This document shows, piece by piece, positions 1,129-8,982 of a stretch of DNA of 10,395 nucleotides. The position numbers and the translations under genes are program-made. The stretch's first letter is position 1; each line of letters begins with the position of its first letter. The stretch is from contig JACPCX010000101.1 in the NCBI GenBank assembly GCA_016184305.1, forward strand, positions 1 through 10,395, in the 5' to 3' direction. The stretch comes from Candidatus Rokuibacteriota bacterium. Its GTDB lineage: Bacteria; Methylomirabilota; Methylomirabilia; Rokubacteriales; CSP1-6. The notes beneath the pieces were generated by a model. It was not told the DNA's origin. It made no database searches and worked only from the letters and a program-made list of their open reading frames with translations.

Positions 1129-2054
1129 AGATCGTTCGCTTCTCCCAGAGTGGCCTCGCGCCACGCCTGGGCTGCTTCCTCGGGCAGGACCGCGTGATGG
1201 ATCTGGCCGCGACGGGCGCCACCCACCTGGCCGCCAAGGGCGTGGTCCGCGCCGGGGAGATCGCGGCAACGCTGTTCCCGCAGAGTACCCGCGGCTTCCT
1301 CGAGGGTGGGGTCGTCAGCCAGGACATGCTCGCCGCGATGATGGCCGCGATCAAGGCCGGGACGCTGGACCCGGTCGCTCACGTGGCCGGCTCCGTCCGG
1401 CTGCACGCGCCCATCGCCGATCCCGGCAAGTTCATCTGCATCGGCCTGAACTACCGGGACCACGCCGCCGAGGGGGGCACCCCCGTGCCGAAGCAGCCGC
1501 CGATCTTCCCCAAGTGGGCCAACGCCATCCTCGACCCCGGCGAGCCCATCCTGAGGCCGCGCGGCGAGACGACGCTCGACTGGGAGGTGGAGCTCGGCGT
1601 CGTCATCGGAACCACCGCCCGACACGTCCCGAGGGCGCAGGCCCTCGACCACGTCTTCGGCTACACGATCGTCAACGACGCGAGCGCGCGCGACTTCCAG
1701 TTCCACACGAGCCAGTGGGCCTCGGGCAAGATCGGCGACACGCTGGCCCCGGTGGGCCCGTACATCGCCGATACGGCCGAGATCCCTGACCCGCACGTGC
1801 TCGAGCTCAAGACCTGGGTCAACGGCAGCCTCATGCAGCACGGGACCACGCGCAACTTCATCTTCGACATCGGCTACCTCATCGAGTACCTGTCGAGCAT
1901 CATGACGCTCGATCCCGGCGATCTCATCGCCACGGGCACCCCCGCCGGGGTCGGCTTCTCCCGCAAGCCGCCCATCGTGCTCCGGCCCGGCGACACCGTG
2001 CGGCTCGAGATCACCGGGCTCGGCACGCTCGAGAACCCGGTGCAGGACGCGTAG
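1125..2054 (+). CDS. Fumarylacetoacetate hydrolase (FAH) family protein, 309 aa
   Basis: C-terminal part of the 15..2054 ORF, with the real start at ATG 1125 (MKIVRF). Motifs: KFICIGLNY, DWEVEL, NDASARD, GKIGDT, TGTPAGVG, LEITGLGTLENPV. Confidence 0.95.
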   Translation: MKIVRFSQSGLAPRLGCFLGQDRVMDLAATGATHLAAKGVVRAGEIAATLFPQSTRGFLEGGVVSQDMLAAMMAAIKAGTLDPVAHVAGSVRLHAPIADPGKFICIGLNYRDHAAEGGTPVPKQPPIFPKWANAILDPGEPILRPRGETTLDWEVELGVVIGTTARHVPRAQALDHVFGYTIVNDASARDFQFHTSQWASGKIGDTLAPVGPYIADTAEIPDPHVLELKTWVNGSLMQHGTTRNFIFDIGYLIEYLSSIMTLDPGDLIATGTPAGVGFSRKPPIVLRPGDTVRLEITGLGTLENPVQDA

Positions 2055-2065
2055 CGCAGCCCCAT
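2002..2065 (+). repeat. 64-bp direct repeat, left copy (3' end of the FAH gene, stop codon, spacer and AT)
   Basis: ggctcgagatcaccgggctcggcacgctcgagaacccggtgcaggacgcgtagcgcagccccat matches 2900-2963 at 62/64. Mismatches are C2028/A2926 and C2043/A2941. Confidence 0.97.
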
Positions 2066-2088
2066 TGCCGGTTGCCGGCCAACGCCCC

Positions 2089-2117
2089 TTGGCAATTACT
2101 GAAAACTCAGTTATTCT
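2089..2117 (+). promoter_or_regulatory. sigma70-type promoter of the TA operon
   Basis: TTGGCA (2089-2094), 17-bp spacer, TATTCT (2112-2117), in a markedly AT-rich stretch upstream of the antitoxin. Confidence 0.65.
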
Positions 2118-2129
2118 ATAAATCAGAAT
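2094..2129. promoter_or_regulatory. Putative antitoxin operator dyads overlapping the promoter
   Basis: AATTACTGA-aaac-TCAGTTATT (2094-2115, 8/9 inverted match) and ATTCT-N7-AGAAT (2113-2129). Autorepression through promoter-overlapping dyads is standard for AbrB-type VapB antitoxins. Confidence 0.55.
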
Positions 2130-2162
2130 TTCGGACTTCTGGCTCTGGCATTGGCAAAGGTG

Positions 2163-2169
2163 AAGGAGG
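2163..2169 (+). promoter_or_regulatory. Shine-Dalgarno sequence of the antitoxin gene
   Basis: AAGGAGG lies 5 nt upstream of ATG 2175. Confidence 0.8.
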
Positions 2170-2174
2170 CTCTC

Positions 2175-2456
2175 ATGGCTCAGGTCAAATCCCTCAGCAA
2201 GCTCGTGCGGCCGCTTCCGAAAGGCCAGATTACGCTCCCCATCGAGTTCCGGCGTCGTCTGAAGATTGACGACAAGACCATCTTGAGCCTTTCGTTGAAG
2301 GGATCAACGATTGAGATTCTCCCCCTCCGACTCGCCGATCAGGAGGTTTCCCTGAGAGAATATGAGACGGATGAGATTGCCCGCTTTCTCGAAGAGGACC
2401 GCCTCGATCGGAAAACCGCCAACAAGGTCCGCCGACTCCTGGGCAAGCGTGCGTGA
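2175..2456 (+). CDS. AbrB/MazE/SpoVT-family DNA-binding antitoxin (VapB-like), 93 aa
   Basis: KGQITLPIEFRRRLKI is the AbrB swapped-hairpin signature, followed by an acidic segment (REYETDEIARFLEED). The SD supports ATG 2175 over TTG 2151. GTGA overlap with the PIN gene. Confidence 0.9.
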   Translation: MAQVKSLSKLVRPLPKGQITLPIEFRRRLKIDDKTILSLSLKGSTIEILPLRLADQEVSLREYETDEIARFLEEDRLDRKTANKVRRLLGKRA

Positions 2457-2941
2457 AGGCTGCGCCCCGCCTGTTCTGCGACGCCAGCATGCTCATCGCG
2501 TTCGCCGGCTCGAAGACCGGCGCTTCGGCGCTGGTGCTGGACCTGTGCCGACAGGGGGCCTGCGAAGCCGTCTGCAGCCGGCTTGTGCTGCTCGAAGCCG
2601 AGCGCAACATCAAAGCCAAGATGGAACCGCACGCCTTGCTCCGTTTTTATCAGGAGATTGCGTCTCTGGACCTCGAACTGGTGGAAGCACCAACCGAAGA
2701 GGACATCGCTGCCCAGCGACGGATCATCGATCCCAAGGATGCCCACGTGCTCGCCGCCGCGCTCAAGGGTAAGACCACATTCCTGCTGACTTTTGATCGC
2801 AAGCATTTCATGGTCCCAACCGTCCTTGAGGCTGGACTTCCTTTCTCGATCATGACGCCCGGGGACTTCCTTCGGTACTTGCTCAGCCAGTGGTGCTGGG
2901 GCTCGAGATCACCGGGCTCGGCACGATCGAGAACCCGGTGA
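2453..2941 (+). CDS. PIN-domain ribonuclease toxin (VapC-like), 162 aa
   Basis: The PIN acidic residues are present in LFCDAS, LLEAERN, DPKDAHVLAAA and LLTFDRKHF, followed by TPGDFL. Translationally coupled to the AbrB-type gene. The last ~14 codons run through the right-hand repeat. Confidence 0.9.
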   Translation: MKAAPRLFCDASMLIAFAGSKTGASALVLDLCRQGACEAVCSRLVLLEAERNIKAKMEPHALLRFYQEIASLDLELVEAPTEEDIAAQRRIIDPKDAHVLAAALKGKTTFLLTFDRKHFMVPTVLEAGLPFSIMTPGDFLRYLLSQWCWGSRSPGSARSRTR

Positions 2942-2963
2942 AGGACGCGTAGCGCAGCCCCAT
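2900..2963 (+). repeat. 64-bp direct repeat, right copy (orphan FAH 3' stub LEITGLGTIENPVKDA*, spacer and AT of the apgM start)
   Basis: ggctcgagatcaccgggctcggcacgatcgagaacccggtgaaggacgcgtagcgcagccccat is 62/64 identical to 2002-2065. Confidence 0.97.
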
Positions 2964-4164
2964 GGATCTGGAGCTGCTGCGGACGCTGGTCATCGGCAAC
3001 GCGACGAGGATCGTACTGTGCTCGCTCGACGGCCTGGGCGGCCTGCCCCGCCCCGGGACGGCCAGGAGCGAGCTGGGGACCGCGCGTATCCCGAACCTGC
3101 ACGCTCTGGCCGGCCGCTCGGCCTGCGGGCTGATTCGCCACGTGGGCCCGGGTATCACTCCGGGCAGCGGGCCCGGACACCTCGGGCTCTTCGGCTACGA
3201 TCCCCTGCGCTATGTCGTCGGGCGCGGGGTGCTCGAGGCGCTCGGCATCGACTTCGACCTGCGCCCGGGCGACGTCGCGGCGCGGGGGAACTTCTGTACC
3301 GTGGATGGCGACGGCCGCATCACCGACCGCCGGGCTGGACGGATCCAGACCGAGTTGTGCAACCGCCTCGTGGAGCGGCTCCGCCAGATCCGCCTGGAGG
3401 GCGTCGAGGTCCTGGTGGAGCCGGTCCGGGAGCACCGCTTCGTTCTCGTGCTGCGTGGAGCCGGGCTCTCCGGCCGCGTGTCCGAGACCGACCCGCAAGC
3501 GCTCGGCGTCCCGCCGCTCGCCGCCCTTGCGCTCGTCCCCGAGGCCGAGACCACCGCCGCCTTCGTCAACCGCTTCGTCGAGGCCGCGCGCCCGCTCCTC
3601 AAGGACGCCGCCCCGGCCAACATGCTCCTTCTGCGGGGCTTCGACCGGAAGCCCGACCTGCCCCGCTTCCCCGAGGTCTTCGGCCTCAAGGCCGCGGCCA
3701 TCGCCGCCTATCCCATGTACCGGGGGCTGGCGCGGCTCGTGGGAATGGAGGTGCTCAAGACGGGGAACACCTTCGCCGACGAGGTCACCACGCTGGGCGA
3801 GCACTGGAGCGCCTACGACTTCTTCTTCCTGCACTACAAGGACACGGACAAGGCCGGCGAGGACGGCGACTTCAACGGCAAGGTCGCGGCGCTGGAGCGC
3901 TTCGACGCCCACCTGCCGGACATCCTCAAGCTCCGGCCCGACGTGCTCGTGGTCTCCGGGGATCATGCGACGCCCTCGGTCCTCAAGGGGCACGGCTGGC
4001 AGCCGGTGCCGGCGCTCATCTGGAGCGCGTACTGTGGCGCGGATCCGGTGAGGCATTTCACCGAAAGGGCTTGCGCAGCCGGGACCCTGGGGCTCCTCGC
4101 CGCCCAGGACCTCATGCCGCTCGTGATGGCCAACGCCCTCCGGCTCACCAAGTTCGGAGCGTGA
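2962..4164 (+). CDS. apgM: 2,3-bisphosphoglycerate-independent phosphoglycerate mutase, ApgM (archaeal-type) family, 400 aa
   Basis: LDGLGG, PGSGPGHLGLFGYDP (catalytic Ser), GRGVLEALG, ARGNF, DRRAGRI, KDTDKAGEDGD, GDHATP, GHGWQPVP. Confidence 0.92.
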   Translation: MDLELLRTLVIGNATRIVLCSLDGLGGLPRPGTARSELGTARIPNLHALAGRSACGLIRHVGPGITPGSGPGHLGLFGYDPLRYVVGRGVLEALGIDFDLRPGDVAARGNFCTVDGDGRITDRRAGRIQTELCNRLVERLRQIRLEGVEVLVEPVREHRFVLVLRGAGLSGRVSETDPQALGVPPLAALALVPEAETTAAFVNRFVEAARPLLKDAAPANMLLLRGFDRKPDLPRFPEVFGLKAAAIAAYPMYRGLARLVGMEVLKTGNTFADEVTTLGEHWSAYDFFFLHYKDTDKAGEDGDFNGKVAALERFDAHLPDILKLRPDVLVVSGDHATPSVLKGHGWQPVPALIWSAYCGADPVRHFTERACAAGTLGLLAAQDLMPLVMANALRLTKFGA

Positions 4165-5459: not shown

Positions 5460-6287
5460 GTGCTCCGCAAGACGTCGGGCTCCAGCCTCTGCTACGCCTG
5501 CGGCAAGCTCAACCGCGTGGACGCCTCCGTCTGCTTCTACTGCGGGCGGAGAAATCCCGGGCTCTGGGGCTTCGGCCCCTGGCTCGGGCGTCTCGCCGGG
5601 CGCCTCGACTTCGCCCGCATCGTCACGGTCGTCTGCATCGCCGCCTATGCGGCGTCCCTCCTGCTCGATCCGGCCGCGTCCATGCGCCCGCGGGGTATGT
5701 TCAATCTCCTGGCGCCGAGCCAAGGTGCGCTCCTGGCCCTTGGCATGACGGGCGCGTACCCCTGGCAGCTCGGGTACTGGTGGACGCTCCTGACCGCCAT
5801 CTACCTGCACGGCAGCCTGCTGCACATCGCCTTCAACCTGCTCTGGATCCATCAGCTCGCCCCGGCCGTGGAGCAGGCGTACGGGCGCTCCCGCCTCGTC
5901 CTCATCTTCACGGGGGGCGGCGTCCTCGGCTTCGTGATCTCCAACTGGGCCGGCGTGGGCACGACCATCGGCGCGTCGGGAGCCGTCTTCGGGCTGCTCG
6001 GCGCCATGGCCGCCTACGGGCGGAGCCGCGGAGGGCTTTTCGGGATGGCGGTGTTCCGCCAGTACTGGCAATGGGCCGTCGTGCTCTTCGTCATGGGCTT
6101 CCTCATGCCGGGCGTGAACAACTTCGCGCATGCGGGGGGCTTCGTCGGCGGCTACCTCACGGGGATGATCGCCGGCCACGGCGACACCCGCCTGGGGGAT
6201 GGCCTCCACCGCGCGGCCGCGACCGCAGCCGTGGCCTTGACGGCACTGGCCTTCGCCCTCGCCGTGTGGAATGCCTTTGGGGCCTGA
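5460..6287 (+). CDS. Rhomboid-family intramembrane serine protease with an N-terminal CxxC-x10-CxxC zinc ribbon, 275 aa
   Basis: HGSLLHIAFN, GASG (catalytic Ser), NNFAHAGGFVGG (catalytic His), several TM segments and CYACGKLNRVDASVCFYCG. GTG start 6 nt after the M23 stop. Confidence 0.93.
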   Translation: MLRKTSGSSLCYACGKLNRVDASVCFYCGRRNPGLWGFGPWLGRLAGRLDFARIVTVVCIAAYAASLLLDPAASMRPRGMFNLLAPSQGALLALGMTGAYPWQLGYWWTLLTAIYLHGSLLHIAFNLLWIHQLAPAVEQAYGRSRLVLIFTGGGVLGFVISNWAGVGTTIGASGAVFGLLGAMAAYGRSRGGLFGMAVFRQYWQWAVVLFVMGFLMPGVNNFAHAGGFVGGYLTGMIAGHGDTRLGDGLHRAAATAAVALTALAFALAVWNAFGA

Positions 6288-6364: not shown

Positions 6365-7603
6365 ATGACCGGCGCCGCGCTGCCCGTCGCCTGGGTCCTG
6401 CCATTCACCGGCATGCTCCTGGCCATCGCCATCTGCCCGCTCGTGATGCCCCATTGGTGGGAGCACAACCGGAACAAGTTCCTGCTGTCCTGTGCGCTGG
6501 GCGCACCCGTTCTCGTCCTGTATCTCACGCGCGAGCCTCACGCGCTGGTCGCCACGGCCGAGGAGTACCTGTCCTTCCTGATCCTGCTGGCGAGCCTCTA
6601 CGTGATCACGGGAGGCATGCTGCTGCGGGGAGACCTCGAGGCGACCCCGCTGACCAACACGGCCTTCCTCGCGACGGGCTCGATCCTGGCCTCGGTCATC
6701 GGGACCACGGGGGCCTCGATGGTGCTGATCCGGCCCTTGCTCCAGACCAACCGGGAGCGCCGGCGGGTCACGCACACGGTGGTCTTCTTCATCTTCCTCG
6801 TGTCCAATATCGGCGGCCTGCTCACGCCCCTCGGCGACCCCCCCCTGTTCCTGGGCTACCTGCGCGGGGTCCCGTTCACGTGGACGTTCCGCCTCTGGCT
6901 CCCCTGGGTCATCGCGGTGGGAGCCCTGCTGCTGACGTATTTCATCTGGGACTCGATCCACCACGCGCGCGAGCCGCTGGCCGCCTTGAAGCAGGACCGC
7001 TCCGAGATCGAGCCCCTGCGCGTCCTGGGCGGGCTGAACGCGCTGCCGCTGGCCGGAGTGGTGCTGTCCGTGGCCTTCCTCCACGCGCCGTGGCGCGAGG
7101 TGGCCATGGTGGCGCTCGCCTGCCTCTCCTTCTGGCGGACGCCGCGTCAGGTCCACCGTGCCAACGGCTTCACGAGCTACCCGATCGTGGAGGTGGCGGT
7201 CCTGTTCTTCGGGATCTTCCTGACCATGATCCCGGCGCTGGAGCTGCTCCGGCTGCGCGGCGGCGAGCTGGGGGTGCGCGAGCCCTGGCAGTTCTTCTGG
7301 GTCAGCGGCGTGCTGTCGTCGTTCCTCGACAATGCCCCGACCTATCTGACCTTCCTGTCGCTGGCCCAGGGGCTCCGCCTTACCGACGAGGTCGTGGGGG
7401 TCACCCACGCCGTGCTGGCCGCGATCAGCGTGGGATGCGTGTTCATGGGCGCCAACTCCTATATCGGGAATGCGCCCAACTTCATGGTCAAGTCCGTCGC
7501 CGAGGAAACCAAGGTCCGGATGCCCTCGTTCTTCGGCTACATGGTGTACAGCCTGGGCGTTCTCGGACCGCTCTACCTCGTGCTGACCTTCCTCTTCCTT
7601 TGA
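6365..7603 (+). CDS. Ion-transporter (IT; ArsB/NhaD/CitM-like) superfamily membrane protein, putative sodium:proton antiporter, 412 aa
   Basis: C-terminal part of the 4736..7603 ORF from ATG 6365. Highly hydrophobic, with GTTGASM, SNIGGLLTPLGDPPLFLG, FLDNAPTYL and GANSYIGNAPNFMVK. Substrate cannot be determined from the sequence. Confidence 0.85.
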   Translation: MTGAALPVAWVLPFTGMLLAIAICPLVMPHWWEHNRNKFLLSCALGAPVLVLYLTREPHALVATAEEYLSFLILLASLYVITGGMLLRGDLEATPLTNTAFLATGSILASVIGTTGASMVLIRPLLQTNRERRRVTHTVVFFIFLVSNIGGLLTPLGDPPLFLGYLRGVPFTWTFRLWLPWVIAVGALLLTYFIWDSIHHAREPLAALKQDRSEIEPLRVLGGLNALPLAGVVLSVAFLHAPWREVAMVALACLSFWRTPRQVHRANGFTSYPIVEVAVLFFGIFLTMIPALELLRLRGGELGVREPWQFFWVSGVLSSFLDNAPTYLTFLSLAQGLRLTDEVVGVTHAVLAAISVGCVFMGANSYIGNAPNFMVKSVAEETKVRMPSFFGYMVYSLGVLGPLYLVLTFLFL

Positions 7604-7608
7604 CCACG

Positions 7609-8982
7609 ATGCGGTACGTGCTCCTCTGCCCCGACGATCTGCTCGAGCACCTTATGGGCCATGCCACCCTGCCGGGTGACTCGTCTGTCCATCTGGTCTC
7701 CAGGCGGGCGCAGCGCGCGCGACTGGCGCGGCGCGGAACGGCCGCCCTGGTCGGCGATCTCGCCGATGCCGGCTTCCTCCGGCGCGCCCTCAAGGGCAGC
7801 CGCGGCCCGGTCGTCGTGGGAACCCCCGCCAGCCGCATTCCCCGGATCCTGAGGGCGCTGCGCGAGGCGCTCCCCGGTGTCCCCCTCCTGGCGGTCACCG
7901 ATGAGTCGGGGGCGCCCCCCGGCACCACGGCGGTGCCGCTGTCCGCCTTCGGGGAGCGGGTGATCCGACCGGCGCTGGAGCGGGCCCTGAGCCGCGCCCG
8001 GGTCGAGCGCATCCGGCGCCACTTCGAGGACGCCCAGCAGGTGCTGATCCTCATGCAGGACGATCCCGACCCCGACGCCATCGCCTCGGCACTGGCGCTG
8101 AAGACGCTCCTCGGCCGCACCCGGACCTCGGTGCATGTCTGCACCTTCGGCACGATCACGCGTCCCGAGAACGTCGCCATGTGCAAGATCCTGGAGATCG
8201 AGGTGGAGGAGATCAGCGCCCAGGCGCTGGACCAGTTCGACCGGGTGGCGATGGTGGACGTGCAGCCCTCGTTCCTCGAGGAGCGCTTCCACGGGGTGGA
8301 TCTCGTGATCGACCACCATCCCGTGGAGCGGCCGATCAAGGCGCGCATCCGCGACGTGCGACCGTCCTACGGCGCCACCTCCACGATCCTCGTCGAGTAC
8401 CTGCGGGCCGCCGACGTCAAGGTGACGCAGCGGCTGGCGACGGCGCTCCTGTACGGGATCAAGTCGGACACGCTGGGGCTGGAGCGTGGCGGTACGCGGG
8501 CGGACCTCGAGGCCTTCTCGTACCTGTACCTCCTGGCGAATCACAGCGCGCTTCGACGAATCGAGCGGCCCGAGCTGTCCGACGGGGCGCTGGACCTGCT
8601 CGCGCAGGGGCTCGCCCGGCGGCGGGTCCTGGGTGGGGTGTTCTTCTCCCATCTCGGCACCGTCACCATGGCGGATCTGATCCCGCAGTTCGCCGACTTC
8701 GGGCTTCAGGCGGAAGGGGTGGAGTGGTCGGTGGTCTCCGGCGTGGTCGGAGACCAGGTCCATGTGTCGATCCGGAACGTGGGGTACGTCAAGAGCGCGG
8801 GAGACACGGCCCGGGCGGCGTTTGGCGATATCGGCCCCGCCGGCGGCCACAGAACCATGGCCAAGGCGGTGGTGCCGCTCGCAAGCCTGACGGTGGGCGA
8901 CGAGGCCCGCGCAGGGCGGGGCTGCCCCGAGCGGATCATCCACCGCGTCCTCCGCGCCCTCGGCCACGAGGAAAAGAGCTGA
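7609..8982 (+). CDS. DHH/DHHA1-family phosphoesterase with an N-terminal degenerate TrkA-N/RCK-like extension, 457 aa
   Basis: C-terminal part of the 6454..8982 ORF from ATG 7609. Motifs: PDPDAIAS, MVDVQ, IDHHP, GATST, GIKSDT, SIR...AGGHRTMA. The N-terminal ALVGDLADAGFLRRA resembles the TrkA-N vGDatdxxxLxxa motif. Confidence 0.88.
   Translation: MRYVLLCPDDLLEHLMGHATLPGDSSVHLVSRRAQRARLARRGTAALVGDLADAGFLRRALKGSRGPVVVGTPASRIPRILRALREALPGVPLLAVTDESGAPPGTTAVPLSAFGERVIRPALERALSRARVERIRRHFEDAQQVLILMQDDPDPDAIASALALKTLLGRTRTSVHVCTFGTITRPENVAMCKILEIEVEEISAQALDQFDRVAMVDVQPSFLEERFHGVDLVIDHHPVERPIKARIRDVRPSYGATSTILVEYLRAADVKVTQRLATALLYGIKSDTLGLERGGTRADLEAFSYLYLLANHSALRRIERPELSDGALDLLAQGLARRRVLGGVFFSHLGTVTMADLIPQFADFGLQAEGVEWSVVSGVVGDQVHVSIRNVGYVKSAGDTARAAFGDIGPAGGHRTMAKAVVPLASLTVGDEARAGRGCPERIIHRVLRALGHEEKS

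Follow-up and report, generated by a model that had tools for sequence, protein, structure and literature searches.

A toxin–antitoxin operon inserted between long target duplications in a Rokuibacteriota genome

Results

A toxin–antitoxin islet between two copies of a host gene end

We analysed a stretch of DNA of 10,395 nucleotides (the window) from a metagenome-assembled genome (MAG) of Candidatus Rokuibacteriota (GCA_016184305.1, contig JACPCX010000101.1; genome G000 and contig C147 below). The genome belongs to a groundwater bacterium, and its 3.2-Mb assembly is a fragmented one of 239 contigs with a completeness of 88.8%. Between a gene for a FAH-family hydrolase and apgM, the window carries a small toxin–antitoxin (TA) islet. 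It is confirmed as a real insertion: 64 bp of the target are duplicated, and relatives have the site empty. The locus has the following features.

1428..2054, + strand: 3' part of the FAH-family hydrolase gene, with the FAA_hydrolase domain and the TAG stop (Pfam PF01557, E 5e-71)
2002..2065, + strand: left copy of the 64-nt target duplication, with the functional FAH 3' end, the spacer and a dead AT (repeat search)
2066..2084, + strand: filler of 19 nt between the left repeat and the shared TA unit (sequence comparison)
2085..2899, + strand: travelling TA unit of promoter, antitoxin and toxin, 815 nt (blastn, 91–92% identical to copies in unrelated contexts)
2089..2117, + strand: sigma-70-like promoter, TTGGCA, 17 nt, TATTCT (consensus match)
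2175..2456, + strand: antitoxin of 93 aa, AbrB/MazE/SpoVT-like (Pfam PF04014, E 6.2e-5)
2453..2941, + strand: PIN-domain toxin of 162 aa (Pfam PF13470, E 5.7e-12; PF01850, E 9e-7)
2900..2963, + strand: right copy of the target duplication, comprising a dead piece of the FAH 3' end, the native spacer and the AT that opens the apgM start codon (repeat search)
2962..4164, + strand: apgM, cofactor-independent phosphoglycerate mutase, intact (NF003160, 568.5 bits against a cut-off of 468; Pfam PhosphMutase and Metalloenzyme)

Sensitive blastn aligned positions 2002–2065 with 2900–2963 over 64 nt at 62/64 identity (96.9%) and a spacing of 898, while a repeat finder drew a slightly longer pair (1999–2065 against 2897–2963, 67 nt, 96%). 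The 64-nt repeat has these two copies only in the whole 3.2-Mb assembly. It comprises the last 16 codons of the FAH-family gene plus 2 nt, the stop TAG (2052–2054 in the left copy), 9 nt of spacer and the AT with which the apgM start codon begins; the ATG (2962) is completed by the right copy only, leaving the AT of the left copy dead. As the target is thereby copied on both sides, FAH retains an intact 3' end, and the spacer and start codon of apgM are preserved as well. The 834-nt interior between the repeats has a GC content of 0.582, against 0.689 and 0.716 in the flanks. An earlier note on this DNA, made from its letters alone, had described the 64-bp repeats around a promoter, an antitoxin and a toxin, their gene-end, spacer and AT content, the single real start codon and the drop from about 70% to about 58% GC, and on all of these it was right; its antitoxin start, placed at 2177, has to be moved to the ATG at 2175.

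Empty sites in congeners

In G001, a genome of the same genus, the flanks are 97–98% identical to the window and the FAH–apgM junction is uninterrupted, with a single copy of the repeat: in its contig C163 the match to the left flank (6786–7451) and the match to the right flank (7385–8088) overlap by 67 nt, corresponding to one repeat copy. The junction is likewise uninterrupted in G002 and G003, also of the same genus. Collapsing the window's repeats into one reproduces the G001 junction exactly, so that the clean FAH–apgM junction foreseen in the earlier note exists in nature, and the empty sites it proposed to look for are present, as single-copy junctions, in all three congeners.

Comparison with the congeners also reveals the history of the two copies. 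At the two differing positions the left copy has a derived C at 2043 (A in relatives, changing Lys to Gln in FAH) and the ancestral C at 2028, and the right copy has a derived A at 2926 and the ancestral A at 2941. Each copy thus carries one change that is private with respect to the three congeners, implying that the duplication is no echo of the assembly.

Among 18 relatives placed by the FAH gene, apgM adjoins it in 17, at a distance of at most 15 nt in 11 genomes, 56–233 nt in four and about 1 kb in two. None of these 17 syntenic relatives holds the islet, another TA pair, an integrase or any other element at the FAH–apgM junction, and the larger integrase-bearing element that the islet might have been a remnant of was accordingly seen in none; one of the 17, G012, is an unpublished genome, and the result is the same for the remaining 16. 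The gaps of about 1 kb, in G007 and G023, were considered as alternative cargo and rejected: each is filled by one high-GC ORF (open reading frame), with no repeats noticed and no TA gene, and is read as ordinary gene content. The ORF is about 300 codons long in both genomes, which belong to two other genera (G007:C94, locus L006 476–1502; G023:C229, locus L008 585–1513).

No integrase or piece of one was found in or beside the islet (ORF list and Pfam), a tRNA search returned no tRNA gene, and no ORF of the islet beyond the two TA genes matched a family. Terminal inverted repeats are absent, as none of the 12 inverted-repeat pairs found sits at the cargo ends. Together with the empty sites, this bears out one part of the earlier interpretation, namely that the islet is an integrase-less insertion with an unusually long target duplication. 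The 19-nt filler (2066–2084) has no match in the empty site or in the other places where the TA unit occurs. When the two joints were inspected for microhomology, no simple crossover between the target and the native end of the cargo would yield the right junction. The duplicated target contains a hairpin of 10 bp with an 11-nt loop (2012–2042, and 2910–2941 in the right copy; arms CACCGGGCTC and GAACCCGGTG) within the last codons of FAH.

As to the host genes, apgM can be regarded as securely identified from its family matches. The PF01557 match covers residues 472–677 of an ORF at 15–2054; the FAH-family gene is 76–98% identical to those of the 18 relatives, and its NCBIfam matches are all to FAH-family hydrolases, every one under its cut-off. 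Upstream of the FAH domain the same ORF (15–1427) has about 470 codons without any Pfam match.

The junctions in sequencing runs

The stretch is found in groundwater metagenomes. The run data consist of contigs, in which neither a circle nor a same-strain empty allele can show. A Logan contig of 936 nt from run X2 (depth 30.9) covers positions 2036–2971, and with them both junctions, with 0 differences, implying that both exist beyond the MAG's own assembly; X2 may be the source sample of G000. Both X2 and X3 hold contigs about 92% like the window that join 2050 to 3004, corresponding to the empty site of a co-occurring relative. Runs X5 and X7, from two other studies, carry the TA unit with a few differences, in X7 in another context. 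Run X3 covers the flanks with 0 differences and leaves 2103–2906 uncovered; we considered this as a same-strain empty allele and rejected it as a hole between contigs, from which nothing is drawn. Joints other than 2050 to 3004 had short sides (21–41 letters) or connected unlike contigs and were disregarded.

A predicted type II TA operon with a read-through toxin frame

The islet is, by its predicted genes, a type II TA operon with its own promoter and a putative PIN RNase as toxin. The sigma-70-like site, a consensus match only, was found once, against a mean of 0.2 in shuffled sequences, and is kept in two metagenome loci (L111 and L112). The antitoxin scores 23.3 bits with PF04014, under the cut-off of 24.7 bits, and has no NCBIfam match; a GGAGG lies 5 nt upstream of its ATG, and its stop overlaps the toxin start by 4 nt (GTGA). 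The pair is kept in the same order in genomes G135 and G033 and in L111 and L112. The toxin reaches 46.9 bits with PF13470 (PIN_3; cut-off 27), and its residues D10, E48/E50, D96 and D115, which we take to be the catalytic acids, are invariant among five homologues.

The toxin frame consists of the native 145–146 aa and a 16-codon read-through tail encoded by the junction and the right repeat. Its relatives terminate in YLIGQM and a stop. In the window, three substitutions lie within 12 nt at the native stop (CAGATGTGATGG to CAGTGGTGCTGG), one of which changes its TGA to TGC, and the frame therefore reads 16 codons on, through the right repeat; the current stop (TGA, 2939–2941) is ancestral host sequence, present in all three congeners. 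The predicted pair resembles VapBC in having the antitoxin before the toxin with a 4-nt overlap, a PIN_3/PIN toxin with conserved acidic positions and a small antitoxin of apparent DNA-binding type, and would differ from it in the 16-residue host-derived toxin tail and in an antitoxin just under the Pfam cut-off.

The same promoter-to-stop unit in unrelated contexts

Comparing the PIN protein with metagenome contigs gave 10 loci, five of them close (80–98% protein identity). Loci L111 and L112 align to 2085–2899 at 92% and 91%, with left flanks unrelated to each other and to the window, and L113 aligns to 2187–2889, as far as its contig reaches. Further unrelated right flanks are found in L113, L117 and the X7 contig, the latter diverging after 2888. 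In all contexts the shared similarity extends from 4 nt before the −35 hexamer to within 3 nt after the stop. The operon is seen, at 91–92% identity, in four or more contexts that are unrelated to one another. With a divergence of 8–9%, flanks of common origin should still be alignable, indicating that the operon alone moved several times. From these alignments, horizontal acquisition as a minimal promoter-to-stop unit appears to be the best explanation of its presence in the window. No FAH-like sequence lies alongside the unit in its other contexts, implying that it does not travel with a copy of the FAH target.

The earlier note had proposed to test whether homologues of the TA pair elsewhere are also flanked by duplicated ends of host genes, which in the sequence covered turned out mostly not to be the case. 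Bracketing repeats above chance level were found neither in G135 nor in G033, and none was found in 2.3 kb of L111 sequence. L112 has a 65-nt repeat pair, which was not counted as a target duplication, being hairpin-rich, of the type of repetitive extragenic palindromic (REP) elements in appearance and present in tandem. Two loci hold lone PIN gene fragments of 133–167 nt, 92–97% identical, that look like decayed remnants of the TA unit (L114 489–655 and L117 114–246).

Recurrence in the genome

Self-comparison of G000 yielded 115 direct-repeat pairs of at least 50 bits with gaps of 300–6000 nt. Comparing the ORFs in such intervals with Pfam, we found TA genes in 15 of 39, or 16 of 40 when the window is counted. 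Most of the remaining 24 intervals represent paralogues in tandem or domains repeated within a protein (GAF, TPR, RTX, pilin, secretion ATPases, binding proteins), and a few hold ferritin-like, Memo-like, Rieske, thioesterase or unknown ORFs as cargo. A permutation test was run on all G000 matches to PF01850 (28 over the cut-off) and PF05016 (7), an input independent of how the intervals were picked. Seven of these 35 PIN/ParE toxin matches lie in intervals with repeats of at least 84% identity. The permutations gave 0.78 on average, and in 5000 trials seven was never reached.

An islet was taken as verified when its target is present once in a congener, between flanks that match those of the islet on either side. 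Five satisfy this definition, the window included, in answer to the earlier suggestion that other TA pairs flanked by repeats be sought in this genome.

C147: PIN pair of the window; repeat of 64 nt (FAH end, spacer, AT of the apgM start); empty in G001, G002 and G003
C153: BrnT/BrnA; repeat of 46 nt, by coordinates within the last ~50 nt of an ORF with a DUF4143 domain; empty in G001
C176: Phd/YefM antitoxin and further small ORFs; repeat of 83 nt (first 83 nt of a gene, up to the start codon); empty in G001 and G003
C118: MazE/MazF; repeat of 139 nt (AtuA end, ATGA overlap, 18 nt of the next gene); empty in G001, G002 and G003
C132: ParE and a small ORF; repeat of 604 nt (last 604 nt of a CN-hydrolase gene); empty in G003

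G000 thus holds five verified cases and about ten further candidates. The verified repeats vary in length from 46 to 604 nt, which argues against an enzyme with a fixed stagger. In C118 the cargo runs from about 14 nt before the −35 element to one codon before the MazF stop, and the stop is provided by the repeat (EMYG, then S and the stop across the joint); the MazEF unit also occurs at 88% identity in G001 and 84% in G003, in unrelated places and without repeats. A further interval, in C177, was not counted as an islet, its 217-nt, 80% repeat sitting in a TPR gene.

The genome also contains TA-flanking repeats of a second kind. A dispersed repeat of about 110–128 nt brackets a HepT/MNT TA pair (L050 1–128, which is C114:1–128; C114:1088–1185) and occurs also at C11:6265–6373 and, inside another TA islet, at C156:4458–4522 and 5529–5627. 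Other repetitive sequences in G000 include a palindromic REP-like element of about 48 nt in C7 (L048 909–956 and 2670–2717), with dozens of matches on both strands in G001–G003, and a repeat of about 125 nt in C132 (L053 3455–3583), with more than 40 copies at 80–100% across the same three genomes.

The pattern extends to G001. There, 25 of 40 PIN matches were fetched and 24 could be tested, four of which are bracketed by repeats of at least 50 bits (90–318 nt). In G000, C187:1378–3066 (L057) has a ferritin-like gene between 180-nt repeats, and the corresponding site in G001:C150 (L139) has a PIN-bearing insert of 2.7 kb between 244-nt repeats; since the two correspond, this is one long-duplication site with different cargo in two genomes. 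A Phd–PIN islet of contig C4 is also present in G001 at 98–99% identity, with an outer repeat of 167 nt in G001 and 58 nt in G000, indicating that repeats get trimmed. In the G001 version of this islet, at G001:C212:16730–19083 (L110 2731–5083), a unit of about 1085 nt, comprising a 172-nt repeat, Phd and PIN, is tandemly duplicated (1269 nt at 99.2%).

Alleles in the repeat copies

In C132, 16 of the 27 differences between the copies are private to the dead copy and the functional copy is conserved, a pattern of plain drift after duplication. Of the 14 sites at which the C118 copies differ, 7 carry the G002 allele in the right copy and form a single block (86–116), and the left copy is G001-like in that block and G002-like at the last differing site (135). 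This reciprocal pattern is exactly what one crossover between the resident target and an incoming allele gives, and could also result from later gene conversion. In the first 28 nt of C118 both copies share a base private to G000. At position 54 of C176 and position 28 of C153 the copies carry alleles of different congeners. Third codon positions account for 15 of 26 differences in C132 and 9 of 13 in C118, exceeding what drift of the dead copy alone would give. The two private differences of the window's own repeats fit either drift or crossover. Taken together, the reciprocal chimeras of C118 and the tandemly amplified relative in G001 indicate that recombination through the repeats does occur.

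Discussion

Insertion with long target duplication

Nobusato et al. reportedly described, in 2000, the insertion with long target duplication (ILTD) of restriction–modification gene units. The available text of Furuta, Abe and Kobayashi (2010; PMC2853133) characterizes ILTD of restriction–modification units by flanking repeats of more than 30 bp (46–423 bp) that align to one copy elsewhere, by a lack of mobility genes, by occasional gene fusion at the junction and by amplification through the repeats. According to the same text the mechanism is not known, with double-strand breaks made by the cargo as a suggestion. The word 'toxin' has no occurrence in that text, and a review from the same laboratory, in its accessible part, states only that some restriction–modification systems insert by ILTD (PMC3874152). 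A 2026 study of 80 TA pairs by Belot et al. calls the mechanisms of TA gain poorly characterised and, in the part available, deals with short res-like palindromes, not long target duplications, the term 'direct repeat' having no occurrence there (PMC13617665). A full-text literature search, which mostly leaves subscription journals outside, returned no report of a long target duplication for type II TA pairs.

The islet agrees with this description in its flanking direct repeats of more than 30 bp (64 nt, spacing 898), both aligning to one sequence in the insert-free G001, G002 and G003, and in an insert of less than 20 kb (834 nt, two TA-type genes) with no mobility gene, tRNA or attachment site. 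It departs from it in the cargo, a PIN toxin with an AbrB/MazE-like antitoxin instead of restriction and modification genes. We consider it probable that the islet is a TA operon inserted at the FAH–apgM junction by ILTD, with a cargo that encodes no recombinase. Further likenesses are an addiction-type unit with a GC content unlike that of the genome, variable repeats (46–423 bp there, 46–604 nt here), a repeat often lying over the 3' end of a host gene, amplification through the repeats and gene fusion at the junction, involving a methyltransferase there and the PIN tail here. The differences are that the cargo is a TA pair with an RNase-type PIN and that many cases occur in one genome. As PIN is RNase-type and not DNA-cutting, the suggestion of a break made by the cargo cannot apply here. 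Long, variable duplications around addiction genes without a recombinase are already known for restriction–modification systems; what is new is the TA cargo.

With respect to mechanism, the two joints may have formed by illegitimate, recombinase-independent recombination at staggered target positions, through template switching or through joining to two sister copies. Ku-type end joining is unlikely, since no Ku gene (PF02735) turned up in either G000 or G001, which are 88.8% and 94% complete; three Ku matches are present in G034, a genome without repeat-bracketed PIN loci. In a gene-dense operon, target-duplicating events would be the only ones to leave both neighbours working, as opposed to partly deleting ones. 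The repeats would then make the insert deletable by homologous recombination, from which we infer that the surviving cargo is one that kills the cells losing it. Retention by such addiction would account for TA pairs being enriched in islets of this kind, as restriction–modification pairs are in the literature. The repeats, once formed, would also allow amplification and probably transfer from strain to strain by homologous crossover.

Several observations weigh against this interpretation or limit its reach. None of the reads or contigs captures the insertion as it formed, a circle or a same-strain empty allele. The ends of the cargo are non-random, as the same promoter-to-stop unit is found in at least four contexts and the MazEF unit behaves alike, which blind illegitimate recombination of random fragments does not predict without later trimming. 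The copies in the sister islets C118, C176 and C153 often carry different natural alleles, which a simple in-situ duplication does not predict. The footprint is far from general and was not seen outside the genus: repeats of at least 50 bits bracket none of the 16 PIN loci of the near-complete G034 and neither of the two in G036, and of 30 MazF loci fetched across 61 family genomes, 26 could be tested, none of them bracketed by repeats of at least 45 bits within 1.5 kb on each side, or none of 23 when three from unpublished genomes (G047, G012, G170) are left out. In G000 itself, the repeat of C114 is not a target duplication, being a dispersed element with 10 matches in the genome and many in G001; the inner repeat of C156 is the same dispersed element, and this islet is a mosaic of TA pieces. 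C7 was not counted as a clean target duplication, as the only G001 homologue of its 72-nt repeat lies at the end of another contig with different flanks; its cargo is present in G001 at 94% as an overlapping, differently truncated fragment without repeats. Nor is C229 a clean case, as its 5.2 kb between 133-nt repeats of a thiolase-like gene end include an integrase fragment, an IS110 transposase and two TA-type modules.

Alternative routes

An alternative that we regard as possible, if on the whole unlikely, is the small circle of the earlier note: consisting of the 64-bp target copy and the TA unit, it would have looped out of an identical islet in a related strain and entered the empty FAH–apgM site by one RecA-type crossover. 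The reciprocal chimeric repeats of C118, as a single crossover gives them, the alleles by which the copies differ at position 54 of C176 and position 28 of C153, both existing in congeners, and the tandem amplification in G001, which demonstrates repeat-by-repeat recombination, are in line with such an event, and the pattern of the window (C, C on the left, A, A on the right) corresponds to a crossover between the two sites. However, the differing bases of the window's repeats are both private, found in none of the three congeners, and can be put down just as well to two later mutations; the C118 pattern could also arise by later gene conversion with a G002-like allele, and the G000-private base in the first 28 nt of both C118 copies is not predicted by a pure single crossover. 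Moreover, 64 bp is short for homologous recombination, and no circle junction was seen, though contigs cannot show one. The circle explains spread and not first formation, and it may thus hold together with ILTD as the origin of the islet.

Duplication of a gene's 3' end is the usual scar of integrative elements, and the islet could accordingly be what deletions left, namely attL, the TA pair and attR, of an integrase-bearing island once inserted at the FAH 3' end, as e14 is at icd. With such elements, and with cis-mobilizable elements (CIMEs), it shares a gene end on both sides, an intact host gene and a foreign GC content. In line with this, the larger islet C229 holds a phage-integrase fragment and a transposase next to two TA-type modules, and a recent study proposes that TA pairs arrive on mobile elements whose linked genes are then streamlined away (Belot et al. 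2026, PMC13617665). Unlike in such elements, however, neither an integrase remnant nor a tRNA gene lies in or beside the islet, and the cargo abuts the repeats, with a gap of 19 nt to the left copy and 0 nt to the right one. Deletions would need to have halted exactly at both attachment sites, and to have done so again in four other verified islets; other copies of the TA unit have no target end beside them, and none of the 17 syntenic relatives has an element at this junction. We consider decay of an integrative element improbable.

Two other kinds of mobile TA units invite comparison. TA gene cassettes are said to reside in chromosomal integrons, such as the Vibrio cholerae super-integron (attributed to Pandey and Gerdes, 2005). 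Such cassettes resemble the islet as promoter-bearing TA operons in compact mobile form between similar flanking sequences. In contrast to them, the shared unit here ends 3 nt past the native stop with the host repeat directly after it, no attC was recognized in the comparison of the unit's contexts, and the flanking repeats are the end of the host FAH gene, single-copy in relatives. The ParE/RelE pairs of Photorhabdus, as far as the available text describes them, are likewise promoter-bearing operons present or absent among close relatives, with one copy of the flank in the empty genome and no mobility gene, but their repeat is a duplicated 24-bp res-like palindrome and the element is of Tn3 type, whereas here it is 64 nt of coding sequence and spacer with non-palindromic ends (PMC13617665).

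It is very improbable that a transposase of IS1634/IS1549 type (IS, insertion sequence) acted in trans with very long staggered cuts on the TA unit as a non-autonomous passenger. Transposons of this type are the only ones known to us that leave duplications of tens to hundreds of bases. A Mycoplasma case is cited for comparison in the accessible text of Furuta et al. (PMC2853133). Against such a passenger speak cargo ends that have no terminal inverted repeats and coincide with the promoter and the stop codon, not with element termini, and verified repeats ranging from 46 to 604 nt. Finally, that an assembler built the duplication from two co-occurring strains, which the fragmentation of the MAG into 239 contigs and the presence of empty-site relatives in the same samples (joint 2050 to 3004 in X2 and X3) might suggest, is scarcely credible, and the artefact raised as a concern in the earlier note can be set aside, given that a contig from a different assembler (Logan) spans 2036–2971 with 0 differences, that a de Bruijn graph requires real reads at the repeat-end/cargo and cargo/repeat-start junctions, that each copy has a private site at which it departs from the other copy and from all three congeners, and that sister islets show a drifted dead copy and a conserved functional one.

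Implications

Returning to ILTD, the chief value of the finding is the recurrent pattern in one genome, more than the single islet. The toxins of the verified islets include members of the PIN, MazF and BrnT families, which, from Pfam descriptions and general knowledge, are presumably all RNases. With these families annotated as RNases, the common denominator with restriction–modification systems would be addiction, the killing of cells that lose the cargo, and not DNA cleavage. As a speculative extension, which we hold tentatively, TA operons may be minimal recombinase-free mobile units that follow the life cycle proposed by Kobayashi for restriction–modification systems, entering by long duplication, amplifying, looping out as circles, re-entering empty sites by crossover and being kept by addiction. 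Three stages of that cycle would be represented by the promoter-to-stop unit in at least four contexts, the chimeric MazEF repeats and the tandem amplification in G001.

If addiction is what the two classes of cargo share, the explanation of such islets shifts from a cargo that makes the break towards a generic insertion in which addiction decides what is kept. The 815-nt unit, the 64-bp target and the empty site in a 97–98% identical relative offer a testable system. C147 and its four sister islets bear on the route by which chromosomal TA pairs enter genomes, as they give TA pairs the footprint of long target duplication known from restriction–modification genes.

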